From assembly GCA_037443825.1 (NCBI GenBank), contig JBBINP010000003.1, positions 1-40,466 of the forward strand: a stretch of 40,466 nt of DNA, read 5' to 3'. Under the pieces are notes generated by a model. That model did no database searches. It was not told where the DNA came from and was given only the letters and a program-made list of their open reading frames with translations. The stretch is from Candidatus Moraniibacteriota bacterium (GTDB lineage: Bacteria; Patescibacteriota; Minisyncoccia; Moranbacterales; JBBINP01). A program made the translations under genes and the position numbers. Position 1 is the first letter of the stretch. Each line of letters starts with the position of its first letter. Shown one piece after another: positions 12,279-19,857 of the stretch.

Positions 12279-13022
12279 ATGCCACTAAAAACTATTTTAA
12301 TGGGCTCTTTGTTGGGCCCGCTATTTGAAAAGGTAATAGGCAAGATCTCCGATAAGGGGATCGACATCGCGGAAAAAAAGTTGAGCAAAATGCTCGACTT
12401 AAAAGAGGCTGGTCGTAGTACTGATGATGAGAGGTACTACAATTCAGCTAAAAGATCCCTTAGCGATCTCGGAAATAAAAGTTTCACTCGAGATCAAATC
12501 AAAGAGATTGTAGACTTTGAGTTTAACCTTCGCCGAAACAACAAGGAAGAGGCGGAGGCGTTTGTGCTTTTTATTTCCGGGATCGTCCATGATCTGGAAA
12601 GAGAGGTGCAGACGGTAGAAACCATTACAAGCAAGGATGGACACAACTCTTATGTCAAAAAAAAGACATACAAAGAAATAGACAGGACGGGGGGAGAAAA
12701 AGATCTCTACTTCTTCCTGAGGGAGTTGTTGGACATAAAGGGAAGCACGGACGAAGAGACGTTTAAGCTTCGGCGCGACTTCCTGAAAGGGTCAAATGTT
12801 TTTTCCATAATCCCTCCCAAAAAGGAGGGTAAAAGCGAGATTGAAAAAGGGATGGACGGGTTTTACGACGCCATCCAGAAAAAAGTGAAAGAGTTCGGCC
12901 GGGAAATAAATACCGGCGCTAAAAAAATAAAAAAGACGCAAGGTGAAAACCTTTGCGATTTAAATGAAAAATTTAAAAAAATAAAAAGCTGGAATGAAAC
13001 CCAGCGAAGGAGGAGGAAATGA
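12279..13022 (+). CDS. Hypothetical protein (247 aa, charged, helical)
   Basis: Long ORF with AGGAGG SD and its own promoter; no recognised motif. Confidence 0.8.
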   Translation: MPLKTILMGSLLGPLFEKVIGKISDKGIDIAEKKLSKMLDLKEAGRSTDDERYYNSAKRSLSDLGNKSFTRDQIKEIVDFEFNLRRNNKEEAEAFVLFISGIVHDLEREVQTVETITSKDGHNSYVKKKTYKEIDRTGGEKDLYFFLRELLDIKGSTDEETFKLRRDFLKGSNVFSIIPPKKEGKSEIEKGMDGFYDAIQKKVKEFGREINTGAKKIKKTQGENLCDLNEKFKKIKSWNETQRRRRK

Positions 13023-14056
13023 TGCCAGTCGTAATATCGCTGGCGGCTTTATTGCTGTTGGCAGTAATGTTTGTTTTTTCAGTGACCGCGAGAAACGCGG
13101 CACTGACGTTAATAGAAGCCTGCTGGCACTTGGCCATCAGGCTGTACGAAAAATTCAAAAGATTAATATTAATCCTGGCTCTGCCGGGGTTAATATTCTT
13201 TCTTATTTTTTCAGTAATCGGCGTTGCCACAGGATCGCCGGTTGCCGGAATTATTATGGGGGTAATGGCCCCAATCTGGATTCTTTTTTTCATACTCAAA
13301 AGAATCCCAGTGGTTGGGGTGATTGGAAAAGCGGGATTTTGGGCGACGACCGTTTTGCTTATCGTCGCAACGCCCGCCTTTCTTTTAGGCGTTTGGTCCC
13401 CATCCGTTAAAAGAAGTTTTGACGGGTGGATGGATTCAAAAAAATCTAGCTGGTCGTTTTCACTTGACCAGCAAGCGGAATATGAAAAGTTCGCGCTTGT
13501 CACAGAAGACGCTGTTCTTTATGAAAGCGCAACGGGGAAAAACCTCCAGAATCTCCGGAAGGGTGATATGGTTTTAATCATTGACCGGAAGTTTAGGAAG
13601 GTGAACGGGGGGTCCGAGCCATTGATTTATGTCATGACTAAGGACAAGAACGGGGAATTCCTCCACGGGAACAAGGGCTTTGTTCTCGCGAGAAAACTGG
13701 GGGATGTTGTTTCTCAGACCCACTCAACCGGGCAAGTTATCGCTCGGGAAAAAAGGGGTGAGATTTTTGGGACATACCGGATCTGCTGGGATGAAAAATG
13801 CGGCAGATTCGGAACGTATGGAAATGGAAATTTTCTCCGGTTTGTGTCTCAGTACAAATCGGGGGAAAGCTTTGTAATGGAGGCCAGGGAAACCGGTCTC
13901 AATCAATATGAAGGAAATTGGGAATTCCGCAGCCAAAATAATCCAGCGTGCGGAAGTTTTTCCCTGAAGTTTAGCCCGGACGGCAGAACCGCCGAAGGAA
14001 TAATGCACAATTATTCCACCAGAAGAGTTCGGCAGCTTCGGGCCGAACGTGAATAA
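13019..14056 (+). CDS. Hypothetical membrane protein (4 N-terminal TM, possible SH3-like and beta-rich C-terminal domains)
   Basis: ATGA overlap with upstream gene, AGGAGG SD; EDAVLYESATGKNLQNLRKGDMVLI resembles SH3b. Confidence 0.8.
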   Translation: MMPVVISLAALLLLAVMFVFSVTARNAALTLIEACWHLAIRLYEKFKRLILILALPGLIFFLIFSVIGVATGSPVAGIIMGVMAPIWILFFILKRIPVVGVIGKAGFWATTVLLIVATPAFLLGVWSPSVKRSFDGWMDSKKSSWSFSLDQQAEYEKFALVTEDAVLYESATGKNLQNLRKGDMVLIIDRKFRKVNGGSEPLIYVMTKDKNGEFLHGNKGFVLARKLGDVVSQTHSTGQVIAREKRGEIFGTYRICWDEKCGRFGTYGNGNFLRFVSQYKSGESFVMEARETGLNQYEGNWEFRSQNNPACGSFSLKFSPDGRTAEGIMHNYSTRRVRQLRAERE

Positions 14057-14059
14057 ACC

Positions 14060-14103
14060 AAACGCCAGTTGACATAAAAATGTTGACTGGCGTTTCTTTT
14101 TTT
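14060..14103 (+). terminator. Intrinsic terminator between convergent genes
   Basis: aaacgccagttgacat-aaaa-atgttgactggcgttt followed by cttttttt. Confidence 0.8.
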
Positions 14104-14139: not shown

Positions 14140-14574
14140 CTAAAATCCCGAAGATGCCCGCAAGGCCTTGTCAACCGCGTAAATAATCACCAAAGCCGAA
14201 ATGGCCACAATCACTCCGATAATAGACGCTTCCATAGCTTTTTGCGCCTTTTGAGCTTTTTCTTTGTCTCCCACGGAAGTCAAGTATAAAATGCCGGCAA
14301 TGACAAAACTGATGATCGCCAACGCTCCGAAGATGGTCAAAAGCCATTTCAAAAAATTCATAACAATATCTTTTACCGGTTTGTCGGAAAGTCCGATTTC
14401 GGAAGAAGTGGGAATGTAAATGCCTTTGCTGGAATTATTAGAGGCAAAAACAAGAGAGCCGCCGGAAACTTTGTAAATTCCTCTTTCAGCGTCCGGATTA
14501 GGAGCCGCAAAAAACAAGAGCGCGGCGACAAAAAAAAGACCGTAGATTATTTTTGCTTGATTGTTTTTTTTCAT
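14140..14574 (-). CDS. TrbC/VirB2-like (T4SS-type) pilin
   Basis: Signal peptide; two TM helices flanking GILYLTSVGDKEKAQKAQKAM...IIG. Confidence 0.8.
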   Translation of the reverse strand: MKKNNQAKIIYGLFFVAALLFFAAPNPDAERGIYKVSGGSLVFASNNSSKGIYIPTSSEIGLSDKPVKDIVMNFLKWLLTIFGALAIISFVIAGILYLTSVGDKEKAQKAQKAMEASIIGVIVAISALVIIYAVDKALRASSGF

Positions 14575-14600
14575 AAAAAAATCGTTGTTTATGTTTGTTA

Positions 14601-14957
14601 TTAAAATTGCGGGTCTGTTCCGGTCAGCATTTTGTTGACCGCCTGCAAAATCACCAGACCCATCAAGGCGACAATGACTCCGACGATGGACATTGTCATG
14701 GCTTTTTTAGCTTTTTCAACGCTTTCTTTTTCTCCGGTTGAAACTAAATATAAAATGCCGGAAACCACAAAGCCGATAATCGCGATGGCAGAGAAAATTC
14801 CCAGTATCCACAAAAGTAAATTATGGATAATGTTATAAACGGAATTGGACGGCAATTTCGTCTCCGTGTAACTGCTCGGATCCCATTGGGCCAGCGCCAA
14901 GGCGGGAAAGAAAAAAATAACCGCGAAAAAAACGCGCCGGATGATTTTGTTTTTCAT
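14601..14957 (-). CDS. TrbC/VirB2-like pilin
   Basis: Signal peptide ending ALA-Q; GILYLVSTGEKESVEKAKKAM...IVG. Confidence 0.85.
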   Translation of the reverse strand: MKNKIIRRVFFAVIFFFPALALAQWDPSSYTETKLPSNSVYNIIHNLLLWILGIFSAIAIIGFVVSGILYLVSTGEKESVEKAKKAMTMSIVGVIVALMGLVILQAVNKMLTGTDPQF

Positions 14958-14997
14958 AATATTAAATTTAATTTAACTGGTAGTTTTTCCTGTTAAA

Positions 14998-15007
14998 ATT
15001 ATACCAT
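14998..15007 (-). promoter_or_regulatory. Extended -10 promoter (TGGTATAAT) for pilin 14957; duplicated upstream of 15362
   Basis: attataccat on + strand in both repeat units. Confidence 0.6.
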
Positions 15008-15023
15008 ATTTTTTTCAGTTTTT

Positions 15024-15060
15024 AAAAAACAAAACAGCCCGGTTATCCACAGGGCTGTTT
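15024..15060 (-). terminator. Terminator hairpin with DnaA box TTATCCACA (15043-15051) in the loop
   Basis: aaacagccc-ggTTATCCACA-gggctgttt; T-rich tract follows on minus strand. Confidence 0.7.
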
Positions 15061-15089
15061 GCTTATTTACGAAAAATATTTTTCCCAAA

Positions 15090-15362
15090 TTAAAATTGCG
15101 TGTCTGCTCCGCCCAGCATTTTGTTGGCCGCCTGCAAAATCACCAGACCCACCAGGGCAACAATGACACCAACAAGAGACATTATCATGGCCTTTTTAGC
15201 TCTTTTGACTCCTTCGTCATCTCCGGCCGAAACCAAATACATAATGCCGGCGATCGCGAAACCGATCACGCCGATCACACCCACCAGACCCAGCATCCAT
15301 TCCATTATGTTGTTGATTATGCTCCACACGACGCCTTGTGGCAAGATGATTTTGTTTTTCAT
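15090..15362 (-). CDS. Chimeric TrbC/VirB2-like pilin lacking a signal peptide
   Basis: MKNKII from the 14957 gene fused in frame to the LPQG... body of the 15856 gene at the duplication junction. Confidence 0.75.
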   Translation of the reverse strand: MKNKIILPQGVVWSIINNIMEWMLGLVGVIGVIGFAIAGIMYLVSAGDDEGVKRAKKAMIMSLVGVIVALVGLVILQAANKMLGGADTQF

Positions 15363-15433
15363 AATGTTAAATTTAATTTTAATTTGACTGGCAGTTTTTC
15401 CTGTTAAAATTATACCATATTTTTTCAGTTTTT

Positions 15434-15470
15434 AAAAAACAAAACAGCCCGGTTATCCACAGGGCTGTTT
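15434..15470 (-). terminator. Second copy of terminator hairpin with DnaA box (15453-15461)
   Basis: Identical to 15024-15060. Confidence 0.7.
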
Positions 15471-15499
15471 GCTTATTTACGAAAAATATTTTTCCCAAA

Positions 15500-15856
15500 T
15501 TAAAATATCGAGTCTGTTCCGCCCAGCATTTTGTTGGCCGCCTGCAAAATCACCAGACCCACCAGGGCAACAATGACACCAACAAGAGACATTATCATGG
15601 CCTTTTTAGCTCTTTTGACTCCTTCGTCATCTCCGGCCGAAACCAAATACATAATGCCGGCGATCGCGAAACCGATCACGCCGATCACACCCACCAGACC
15701 CAGCAGCCATTTCATTATGTTGTTGATTATGTTAAACACGGTGCCTTGCGGCAAATTGGTGTCTCCCGGTTGCTTGAATTGAGCCGCCGCCAAAACCGGC
15801 GCGAACAAAGTCGCTGAAACCAGCCCGTAAACTATTCTTTTTATTTTTGTTTGCAT
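15500..15856 (-). CDS. TrbC/VirB2-like pilin, probable major subunit
   Basis: Signal peptide ending AAA-Q; GIMYLVSAGDDEGVKRAKKAM; strong SD AGGAGGTG like that of hup. Confidence 0.85.
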   Translation of the reverse strand: MQTKIKRIVYGLVSATLFAPVLAAAQFKQPGDTNLPQGTVFNIINNIMKWLLGLVGVIGVIGFAIAGIMYLVSAGDDEGVKRAKKAMIMSLVGVIVALVGLVILQAANKMLGGTDSIF

Positions 15857-15930: not shown

Positions 15931-16254
15931 TCATTCAACAAGTTTTTGCGCCGTTTTCACGATTATCAGCGCGCCGAATATCGCGATAGTTCCAATAATT
16001 GAAAACCCAAAACCTTTCTTGGCTTTTTCCGCAATTTGCGGACTGCCGGCGGAAAAAAAATAGATGGCGCCTGAAACAACCATTGATATTATAGCAAGAA
16101 CGCCCGCGATTGACAAGAGAAATTCCAGAGCGTTCAGCGCCGCATCCTTGATCCACGGAGCGTCGGCAATCACGCCGGCGCTGGCATAATGAAAAAAGAG
16201 CGCCAAAAAAAACAGTAACGGCGCGACTTTTAATTTTTCAATAACAATTTTCAT
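15931..16254 (-). CDS. TrbC/VirB2-like pilin
   Basis: Signal peptide ending ASA; GAIYFFSAGSPQIAEKAKKGF...IIG. Confidence 0.8.
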   Translation of the reverse strand: MKIVIEKLKVAPLLFFLALFFHYASAGVIADAPWIKDAALNALEFLLSIAGVLAIISMVVSGAIYFFSAGSPQIAEKAKKGFGFSIIGTIAIFGALIIVKTAQKLVE

Positions 16255-17922: not shown

Positions 17923-19857
17923 TTAAACCCCCTTGATAGCTTGGTCTGTGTATGTGCCGTGTTGCTTCATTGTTTTGGCGGTTTCGTCTTGGTAAAATTC
18001 CTTCTTTTCTTTTTTCCATTCATCATGTAATTTTTTCGCATTTTCAAGCGCTTCAATTTCGTTTTTAAGATTAAGGACTTTTCTATCAAATTTATCTTTT
18101 TGATCTTGAGTTGTTCCGCTTGGCAAGGGAGTGGATATCAACAACTTATGTTGATTAATTTTTTTCACGTATTCACGCCTGTCAAAACTCGGCTCCGGAA
18201 CAGCATACGGAGTGGATGCTTTAGTTCTTCTTTTTATCTCCTTTTCATATTCTTTGCTATCGCGTTTGGCAGCCTCCCGCAAACCAGCTAATTCATTAAA
18301 ATTCTCCTGACTGGGAGCTAGTCCTTTACTACTTATTCCATTTTCTATTCTTTCAATTTCATCCACAACGTCTTTCATGTTTTTATTTTCCCAGTTTTCT
18401 GCTCTTTCTTTAATGGCCTCTCTATTTCTTTTTTCCTTAAATTTTTGTCTTGCTTTCGCTTCGGCTTCCTTTGGATCTTTTCCACTTGCTCTCGCTTTTT
18501 GCCTTGCTTCGCGCACCGCCATTTCTTCGTCATACGCTTCTTTTCTTTCATCAACGCCTTTTCCTTTCTTGCCGGTCAATGTGTCTTTGTAATGTTTCAG
18601 TTTGGCTCTCGTTTTTCCTTCCAATTCATTAAATCCGGGGATTTTTCTTGCGCCGGCCCAGGCGGCATATCCGGCTCCCTTGGCCGTGCCTTTGGCCATT
18701 TTTTTGCTCCATGCTATGCTTTTATTAAAGGCCTTTGTTCCTATCTCGCCAGCCGCGCCGCCCAGTTTCAGTGCCGCCAAAAAACCGGTCCAAAGAAGAA
18801 TGACCGGGATGAAAAAAAGCGCCGCGCTGGCAACAAAACTGGAGCTATCGCTCGATCCCACATTGTTTCCCGCGTCTCGAAGAAAAGTCGCATCAATGGC
18901 GCTGTTACTCATATTTTGCATTATTTTTACGGACAAGACGATTACAAACATCATTATCGGCGCGAAAAAAGAATATTTAAAAAGAGCGTCCCACCAATCA
19001 TTGGCATGTTTGTTGATGGCGGGAAAAATTAATCCCACGAACCCAACAGGGGAAAGAATGATAACAATTCCCAAAACAGCCAACCGGACGACAAAACACA
19101 GCGCTATCACGAGAAAAGTGATCATCAAAATGAAAGTGAGAGTAATAATAGCTAGCAAAAACCAGACGGACGTGCTGTCAGATGTGGCTGTTTTAAAATT
19201 AATCACTTTCACAATACTTGAATATTCGGCAATCTGTGCAAAAATGCTTTCGCCCTTGCCGCCGGCGGGAACAAGACTGTTAAAAAGAAAGTAGAAAATA
19301 ATGTGGGACACGTCTATGACAAAGCGCGCGATGGGAAAACTGAAATTCACCAGAAGCGCCACAAGAATCACGTTGAGCAGAATGCCTTTTCCGATAAGGT
19401 GGTATTTTGAAACCTGAAAGACAGTGCAAAAAGCCGAAAATAAAAGAGTCAGAATAAAAGCGATATTTAAAATATCGCGCACCGTTTTCCATGATTCATA
19501 AATAGCCGGATTCCACAGAACTCTATAAATATTTTCCGGATTAACCACCCATCCAAAAATAACCGCGGCCACTCCCAAAAACCAAGCGAAAACCAAAAAA
19601 ATTCCATATAATACGGCTTTTATCGCTTTTAAAAACATATTCCCTACCGTCCCGGCATCCTGATGTTTAATCGCGGGTTTACTATTTTGTGCAAAAGTTT
19701 TTTCCGCTGTTTCATAAACAAACACCTTTTCGCCGTGACTGCCACCGTCCAATTCAACGCCCTGAAAGTTCAAAAGAAAAAAACCAAAAACGACAAAAAC
19801 AGACAAAATGGCAAGTTTCGCGCTTTTGGATATTTTTTTGTTTTTCTTTTTCCACAT
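17923..19857 (-). CDS. VirB6/TrbL-like polytopic membrane protein with charged coiled-coil C-terminal tail
   Basis: WKTVRDILN, LLVNFS..IARFVID, R...L..VIILSP.GF, WWDALFKYSFFAP pattern recalled from CPR VirB6-like proteins; near pilin array. Confidence 0.65.
   Translation of the reverse strand: MWKKKNKKISKSAKLAILSVFVVFGFFLLNFQGVELDGGSHGEKVFVYETAEKTFAQNSKPAIKHQDAGTVGNMFLKAIKAVLYGIFLVFAWFLGVAAVIFGWVVNPENIYRVLWNPAIYESWKTVRDILNIAFILTLLFSAFCTVFQVSKYHLIGKGILLNVILVALLVNFSFPIARFVIDVSHIIFYFLFNSLVPAGGKGESIFAQIAEYSSIVKVINFKTATSDSTSVWFLLAIITLTFILMITFLVIALCFVVRLAVLGIVIILSPVGFVGLIFPAINKHANDWWDALFKYSFFAPIMMFVIVLSVKIMQNMSNSAIDATFLRDAGNNVGSSDSSSFVASAALFFIPVILLWTGFLAALKLGGAAGEIGTKAFNKSIAWSKKMAKGTAKGAGYAAWAGARKIPGFNELEGKTRAKLKHYKDTLTGKKGKGVDERKEAYDEEMAVREARQKARASGKDPKEAEAKARQKFKEKRNREAIKERAENWENKNMKDVVDEIERIENGISSKGLAPSQENFNELAGLREAAKRDSKEYEKEIKRRTKASTPYAVPEPSFDRREYVKKINQHKLLISTPLPSGTTQDQKDKFDRKVLNLKNEIEALENAKKLHDEWKKEKKEFYQDETAKTMKQHGTYTDQAIKGV

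Follow-up and report, generated by a model that had tools for sequence, protein, structure and literature searches.

A tandem duplication of about 410 bases has added a chimeric pilin gene to a pilin gene array of an ultra-small bacterium from groundwater, a member of Candidatus Moraniibacteriota. The array lies on contig JBBINP010000003.1 of GenBank assembly GCA_037443825.1, the whole of which (40,466 nucleotides) is the window referred to here, and it consists of five small minus-strand genes, E, D, C, B, and A, arranged head to tail in that order from 16254 to 14140. Gene C is the additional member. The overall best explanation, which we consider probable, is that a recent illegitimate duplication created gene C and that selection has since driven amino acid replacements at the two ends of the pilin. 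Under this explanation, a homology-free event inside a conserved chromosomal VirB2-like type IV secretion pilin array would have duplicated the segment that began at codon 35 of D and ended at codon 6 of B, when the array still had the ancestral D-B order. The mature body and terminator of D would thereby have been brought together with the promoter and start codon of B in a self-contained extra gene. The product of C would be a pilin of nearly the length of mature D (90 versus approximately 92 amino acids [aa]), with MKNKII replacing the signal peptide. After the duplication, the helices and the loop would have stayed identical, and replacements would have accumulated where the amphipathic part of helix 1 begins and in the C-terminal tail, presumably through selection for new surface properties in contact with host or phage and perhaps with some exchange of segments between D and C or with other alleles. 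Gene C may be expressed and its product able to enter the membrane.

All five genes encode proteins that score above the cut-off (gathering score, 26.6 bits) of the Pfam family PF18895 (T4SS_pilin). Gene D (15500 to 15856, 118 aa, 42.1 bits), with GGAGG 8 bases 5' of its ATG, encodes a full-length VirB2-like pilin and is the parent of the duplicated body. Gene C (15090 to 15362, 90 aa, 41.8 bits) encodes the chimeric pilin, and gene B (14601 to 14957, 118 aa, 41 bits) encodes the pilin that is the donor of the promoter, the start codon, and MKNKII. B and D are 73% identical in nucleotides across the shared 255 bases. The first gene of the array is E (15931 to 16254, 107 aa, 32.7 bits), and the last is A (14140 to 14574, 144 aa, 48 bits). 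A signal peptide and a two-helix hydrophobic hairpin are present in D, B, A, and E, as judged from the sequences and from a model of D; in the chimeric C, the hairpin is present and the signal peptide is absent. Against NCBIfam NF045849 (pilin-like conjugal transfer protein), D reaches 39.3 bits, with a cut-off of 40. This family is the Mbov_0395 family of Mycoplasma integrative conjugative elements, and the near-match is a sequence link of the pilins here to conjugation systems of monoderm bacteria.

The duplication comprises two adjacent minus-strand units, unit 1 at 15345 to 15754 (repeat family, 98%) and unit 2 at 14940 to 15344. The units align end to end (15754 to 15345 against 15344 to 14940), with a blastn identity of 94.6% over 411 columns, 15 mismatches, and 2 gaps. 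Read on the minus strand, each unit contains the mature pilin body from LPQG, the stop codon, a hairpin with a U-run, the promoter-like pattern TTTAAA-16/17-TGnTATAAT, and ATGAAAAACAAAATCATC. Unit 1 thereby extends from L35 of D to the MKNKII of C, and unit 2 extends from the mature body of C to the first six codons of B. The start of gene C, ATGAAAAACAAAATCATC, encodes MKNKII and is identical to the first six codons of B; LPQG and the remainder of D from residue 35 onward follow in frame. The hairpin and U-run downstream of D (15437 to 15474, minus strand) resemble a terminator, with an RNA fold of -23.8 kcal/mol and a z score of -4.2, and were missed by a consensus scan; an identical copy lies downstream of C (approximately 15027 to 15064, minus strand). 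The promoter-like site upstream of C (15409 to 15436, minus strand, 16-base spacer) is a pattern match only, with 10 of 12 consensus positions and the TG, and its duplicate lies upstream of B (14998 to 15026, minus strand). At the junction ATC/TTG (15344/15345, minus strand), the reading frame is kept, and no base is common to both parents across the join, which indicates that the join was not made by homologous recombination. An earlier note on this DNA had proposed a tandem duplication with an in-frame chimeric pilin, and the alignment and blastn bear out both the units and the junction to the base.

The junction is also present in sequencing data, for which Logan k-mer contigs of the public run X1 served as depth evidence; this run may be the source sample and hence not independent. 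Contrary to the outcomes that the earlier note had taken to speak against a duplication (no junction-spanning reads, or half coverage of each unit), a contig of 151 bases (15272 to 15422) crosses 15344/15345 with 72 and 78 bases on either side and 0 differences, and the 188-base core that both units share, collapsed into one contig, has a depth of 39.1x, compared with 20.8x, 21.4x, and 24.2x in the flanking long contigs. A core at about twice the flank depth, together with the junction words, indicates that these are not two stacked alleles, which would leave the core at single depth and produce no junction words. In addition, k=31 unitigs predicted from the assembled genome alone reproduce the contig ends at 15011, 15096, and 15422 and the 188-base core. 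Runs X2 to X4 contain short low-depth contigs over small shares of the window, with no cover of 15213 to 15613, so the junction depth comes from X1 only. In a second deposited assembly, a 26,867-base contig carries the gene for a protein of 90 aa (P0007) that begins with the identical chimera and departs from C at a single residue; this assembly encodes a full-length D of 119 aa (P0079) as well. The duplication and its junction thus occur in two assemblies.

The two copies differ almost only at their ends. In the shared 255 coding bases, there are 12 substitutions in 9 codons, of which 11 are nonsynonymous and change 8 codons (T>V, F>W, N>S, K>E, L>M, T>A, S>T, and I>Q, from D to C), and the sole synonymous change is CCG/CCA. 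Identity is unbroken for at most 188 bases (unit positions 50 to 237; 15518 to 15705 in D and 15108 to 15295 in C, both on the minus strand), a run that covers residues 52 to 113, with both hydrophobic helices and the loop. These numbers are the same as those counted in the earlier note, and a codon-level comparison agrees with its statement that the coding differences lie at the ends and are nearly all nonsynonymous. The N-end patch (minus strand, 15706 to 15749 in D and 15296 to 15339 in C) holds 8 of the 12 substitutions within residues 36 to 51, at the start of helix 1. The C-end patch (minus strand, 15507 to 15517 in D, homologous to 15097 to 15107 in C) holds 4 substitutions affecting residues 114, 116, and 117 of the tail past helix 2. 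The stop codon and the next approximately 96 bases are identical between the units as well, and a third small cluster of differences, with 2 substitutions, a 6-base indel, and a 1-base indel, lies just upstream of both MKNKII starts. The clustering is highly significant and exceeds chance by a wide margin: in 200,000 trials that placed 12 substitutions at random, an identical run of at least 188 bases never remained, and for 9 changed codons among 84, an unchanged run of at least 62 has a probability of approximately 1e-5.

The placement of the changes was compared with an AlphaFold2 model of D, which was built from 40 sequences and has a mean pLDDT of 70, with the best values in the hairpin. 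The model contains a signal helix (residues 2 to 25), a disordered tail (26 to 38), a first helix (39 to 72), a loop (73 to 76), a second helix (77 to 110), and a C-terminal tail (111 to 118). The changed residues 39, 41, 42, 49, and 51 open helix 1, and residues 114, 116, and 117 are in the C-terminal tail, so that the two groups are predicted by the model to be neighbors where the hairpin is open, at the end away from the loop. The changed columns are also variable in the family (1.94 versus 0.88 bits, p = 0.0014). When only columns of 1.5 bits or more are considered, changes are present in 6 of 11 terminal columns, compared with 0 of 14 in the middle (p = 0.0026, with the split into ends and middle chosen after the data had been seen), which indicates that column variability alone is insufficient to account for the placement.

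The duplication is young and lineage specific. Neutral change between the units amounts to 1 in 61.3 synonymous sites and 2 in approximately 131 aligned intergenic sites, or approximately 1.6%. Among 40 relatives, all from the same order and none from the same family or genus, every one had several pilin matches, and the arrays of nine (L002 to L010) were inspected. The E-, D-, B-, and A-type genes recur across these nine arrays; a leaderless copy of D between the D-type and B-type genes was found in none of them. The best within-array pair has an identity of 0.46 to 0.71 in the nine relatives, versus 0.90 here. The best outside homologues are 64 to 67% identical to D and 53 to 57% identical to B, and an exact 30-base core pattern had no match in the JGI metagenome contigs. 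Two proteins of 69 to 71 aa (P0074 and P0076) were considered as further leaderless pilins and rejected, as they start at an internal methionine on contigs of approximately 1.1 kb and look like cut gene calls.

The parent pilin D is a hot spot between strains. Comparison of the second assembly with the first showed that the 644-aa and 135-aa neighbors are identical, the 404-aa neighbor differs at 1 of 404 residues, and C differs at 1 of 90, whereas D differs at 7 residues and has 1 inserted residue (7/118 in D versus 1/1183 in the neighbors, Fisher p = 3e-7). The differences in D fall in the mature N-tail (residues 29 to 32, QPGD versus QDPEG) and at residues 41, 42, 51, and 116 to 117. The N-tail difference lies outside the duplicated segment, which indicates that C was not its source. 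A contig of run X2 covering 14600 to 15059 carries an allele of B in which 7 substitutions are accompanied by an insertion of 3 bases at 14862/14863 (residues 32 to 33, in the mature N-tail before LP); the same allele has single-base insertions in the promoter region (14971 and 14976). Taken together, the N-tail difference in D and the insertion in the same region of B suggest that the mature N-tail is changeable in its own right. At the other positions, the D of the second assembly shares W41, M51, T116, and Q117 with both C copies and T39 and K49 with the D of the window.

Several points weigh against the preferred explanation. The Nei-Gojobori dN/dS between D and C is 3.5, with one synonymous change, and its excess over 1 is not significant against synonymous sites alone (Fisher p = 0.30). 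Stronger values are obtained against synonymous plus intergenic sites (Fisher p = 0.032) and for the count of 11 replacements, where the neutral rate predicts approximately 3 (Poisson 2.7e-4, or 0.011 with changed codons counted as events), with these tests resting on 3 neutral events or on ends defined post hoc. Three of the changed codons have two substitutions each, so that the independent events are fewer than 11. The evidence on which copy changed is conflicting: the outgroups favor F41, N42, K49, and L51 of D as ancestral, yet the D of the second assembly has W41, M51, T116, and Q117 in common with both C copies, and either history takes several patches. Two readings fit: the D of the window may have moved back to the family consensus (F, N, and L), for example, via a diverged allele, or the D of the second assembly may have received two tracts from the neighboring C copy. 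The comparisons with the second assembly were made at the protein level, and that assembly and all four runs may share one study, which limits their independence. In run X1, the junction contig has a mean depth of 11.5x, about half of the flank depth.

The structural argument carries further points of this kind. In the H-pilus, the inter-helix loop is turned to the lumen, which holds in the solved conjugative pili as described in PMC11722321, and by analogy, the changed end of the hairpin would face outward. However, fold searches gave no link to solved pilins: the best match in a sequence profile search of the PDB was an unrelated protein (E value, 0.94), a Foldseek search with the model of D gave designed proteins (best E value, 0.25), and a wide VIA search gave Z scores of approximately 10 to ESCRT-III and other generic helical hairpins. 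These outcomes are neither for nor against a VirB2 fold. No protein of the window matched PF04956 (TrbC/VirB2) at an E value of ≤0.01, and a precomputed match to this family is recorded for 7 of 77 homologues. The account in PMC11722321 also describes cyclized pilins from which the last residues are cut off, and the C-terminal changes could sit in a discarded tail. The structural check proposed in the earlier note supports a cluster of variable residues at the open end of the hairpin, and their surface exposure may be proposed by analogy with solved pili. Lastly, the short N-tail of C has two lysines and no hydrophobic leader, and from its sequence, the protein may be misoriented in the membrane or inert. 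Leaderless E-type pilins in five of nine related arrays suggest that members without a classical leader are tolerated.

The earlier note had proposed diversifying selection or gene conversion for the pilin ends. The evidence for diversifying selection is only suggestive, and there is no support for conversion with B as the donor. Across the 12 positions at which D and C differ, B has the base of D in 5 cases, that of C in 3, and that of neither copy in 4, so B was rejected as a donor. The idea that the C-terminal QF of C is a mosaic piece taken from B is unsupported for the same reason and because TQF is also found in both copies of the second assembly. In this pair of columns, F is nearly invariant and Q occurs in 6 of 35 outgroup homologues, which together with the TQF of the second assembly indicates that shared ancestry accounts for QF. 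Another donor of the end variants in the same genome was sought and rejected, as blastn of the units against all 59 contigs gave, beyond the match between the units themselves, only B (178 bases at 80%) and A (at 69%). A diversity-generating retroelement was rejected as well, since adenine stands at 5 of the 12 differing bases in D and at 4 in C, so the changes are not adenine restricted; this was judged from the base pattern, a reverse transcriptase not having been searched for.

An unlikely alternative is that C is an inert by-product of the duplication that enters no assembly, and that the pattern stems from turnover of the functional parent D through recombination with diverged alleles of other strains rather than from selection on the new copy. 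In its favor, D changed at 8 positions between the assemblies and C at 1; the QPGD/QDPEG difference is outside the duplicated segment and not derivable from C; the B allele of run X2 has its insertion in the same N-tail region; and the leader present in D, B, A, and E is missing from C. However, V39, S42, and E49 are shared by both C copies and absent from both D copies and most outgroups. C has acquired replacements at its ends only and has an identical core, whereas an unconstrained gene would be expected to change evenly. Its frame is intact in both assemblies, as are the promoter-like site and the terminator-like hairpin, and no donor allele is present in the 94%-complete genome.

It is also conceivable, but quite improbable when taken as a whole, that D and C together form a two-copy recombination device for pilin surface variation. 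The leaderless copy would store alternative ends, with the 188-base core and the identical terminator region as homology arms, and exchange together with gain or loss of units would yield mosaic expressed pilins, such as the D of the second assembly and the alleles implied by contig ends in run X1. If this were true, an obligate epibiont could retune its attachment to the host or evade phages within a nearly clonal population. In Neisseria, partial pilin copies (pilS) without the N-terminal export region lie beside the expressed full-length gene (pilE), and conserved segments are flanked by variable ones; the pilS copies have neither promoter nor start codon, and type IV pili have an unrelated protein fold. 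The leaderless C beside the full-length D, the alternation of conserved and variable segments, and the mosaic-looking D of the second strain are similar to that system. The D of the second assembly has C-type residues at W41, M51, and T116-Q117 and D-type residues at T39 and K49, and any transfer behind this mixture may have run in either direction. C has an ATG, a duplicated promoter-like site, and a terminator, unlike a silent donor.

An older duplication, in which repeated gene conversion between C and D kept the core and the stretch after the stop codon identical and the ends escaped, is very improbable. The alternation of perfectly identical segments with densely changed ones and the mixture of D-type and C-type residues in the D of the second assembly are in its favor. 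However, homology spans the whole unit, including the intergenic DNA and the first 18 bases of B, with one sharp junction, and neutral sites outside the core are also just approximately 1.6% diverged. At this rate, the 49 synonymous sites of the core would remain without a change with a probability of 0.47, which indicates that homogenizing conversion is not required.

An assembly artefact, with alleles of a single pilin gene from two strains placed in tandem by the assembler, is hardly credible. In its favor are the origin of the genome as a metagenome bin (59 contigs), a junction contig at about half of the flank depth, and contig ends that hint at further alleles. Against it, the run contains the junction 31-mers (mean, 11.5x), the depth of the shared core is about twice that of the flanks rather than equal to it, and the second assembly encodes a full-length D plus the chimera. 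The contig ends in question differ from those predicted, with the junction contig starting at 15272 instead of 15266 and a long contig starting at 15736 instead of 15676. Both are at variable codons, one between E15 and M17 of C and the other at F41 of D, which suggests that further alleles in the sample branch there. Such alleles could also account for the low depth of the junction contig, and contig depths cannot separate coexisting alleles from a subpopulation without the duplication (copy-number variation, as in the accordion-like locus that the earlier note had suggested). Elsewhere in run X1, the region from 13939 to 14090 is represented by two contigs, of which the first, at 21.5x, matches the window exactly and the second, at 7.4x, has 11 differences from it plus a 1-base gap. 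At this spot, which lies between convergent genes and contains a 16-pair palindrome followed by a T-run (14060 to 14095), strains differ locally, and the stretch is otherwise uniform.

Arrays of this kind have been published, and the new part here is a pair this young. A survey of 3,035 Patescibacteria genomes describes 441 pilin arrays with a mean identity of 25% and a maximum of 54% (Quinonero-Coronel et al. 2025, PMC12102498). Like those arrays, the one studied here consists of tandem small PF18895 pilins with a signal peptide and a two-helix hairpin and is chromosomal, beside a VirB6-like gene, with a VirB4-like ATPase encoded elsewhere in the genome. The paralogues described in the survey are old, whereas D and C are 90% identical in protein and approximately 95% identical in DNA, and the duplicated regulatory DNA and the leaderless chimera are further differences. 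The survey cites as an analogy the tandemly amplified VirB2 paralogues of Bartonella and Anaplasma (PMC12102498), which are likewise neighboring pilin paralogues whose variation is proposed to alter surface properties. These are animal pathogens with Gram-negative-type systems, and in that account of them, no young chimeric leaderless copy is described. With the solved conjugative pili (F, pED208, T, and H), the pilins here share the helix-loop-helix form, which in the structures reviewed in PMC11722321 places the loop toward the lumen and the termini together; the differences are that no significant sequence or fold match was obtained, that Patescibacteria are monoderm, and that no pilus built from these proteins is known.

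VirB2-like pilin arrays are widespread in Patescibacteria and, according to PMC12857230, essential for life on the host in one cultivated case that was tested; in that summary, this is the six-pilin array of Ca. Southlakia epibionticum, and pilus polymerization is unproven for the whole PF18895 family. The arrays described so far in these sources contain only old, divergent paralogues, so that the growth and diversification of arrays has been guesswork. The present locus provides a concrete route to a new array member, a homology-free duplication from mid-gene to mid-gene that carries its own promoter and terminator. It also shows where change comes first, namely, at the N- and C-terminal ends, where the hairpin is open, and the hot spot in the parent pilin is seen between two nearly identical genomes. 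The named residues and the natural leaderless variant can be used in work on pilin assembly and host specificity.

The host is a Moranbacteria-type Patescibacterium; homologues of the window pilins are named Candidatus Moranbacteria or Parcubacteria. Its genome of 840 kb is 94% complete in 59 contigs, and the window is the whole of one contig. Two genes upstream of the pilin array, separated from it by genes for proteins of 404 and 135 aa, is a gene for a 644-aa multi-pass membrane protein (17923 to 19857, minus strand). An ESM Atlas feature search gave this protein a first match of 0.95 labeled TrbL/VirB6, with PF19590 on 18% of the cluster members, and from these features, taken as a lead, it is probably VirB6/TrbL-like. 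A homologue is present in 18 of 20 relatives; in 5 of these 18, it lies no more than 4 kb from the pilin array. Two overlapping plus-strand genes at 12279 to 14056 are convergent with the pilin array and encode a charged protein of 247 aa and a protein of 345 aa with an N-terminal membrane region; the latter is recorded on two NCBI contigs. The 644-, 404-, 135-, 345-, and 247-aa proteins had no match in Pfam or NCBIfam. The remainder of the contig is housekeeping, with genes for NusA, an H+-pyrophosphatase, trigger factor, ClpP, RuvABC, and a penicillin-binding protein.

Four further pilin domains are encoded in the genome, three on contig C1 and one on contig C29. The second pilin locus (C1, 38340 to 42554) encodes a pilin of 253 aa whose C-terminal domain is Cys-rich, a protein of 214 aa that contains two pilin domains in tandem, a 158-aa membrane protein, and an AAA_10 (VirB4-like) ATPase, and it is probably the motor half of the secretion system. 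A profile search of the genome did not find PF03135. On contig C29 (416 to 4086), a 303-aa protein combines an N-terminal pilin domain, a Pro-rich linker, and a Cys-rich C-terminal domain, and its gene lies directly downstream of that for a 920-aa Cys-rich secreted protein. In five of the nine related arrays, the first (E-type) pilin is only 89 to 95 aa long (L002, 2113 to 2382; L003, 1890 to 2162; L004, 606 to 878; L005, 502 to 774; and L010, 1054 to 1341), with 8 to 27 residues between the first possible start codon and the family domain (e.g., MKLIEIARAQ followed by VISEAP...). The E of the window has a full leader of 26 residues, and the short forms suggest, from their sequences, a short-leader subclass among PF18895 pilins.

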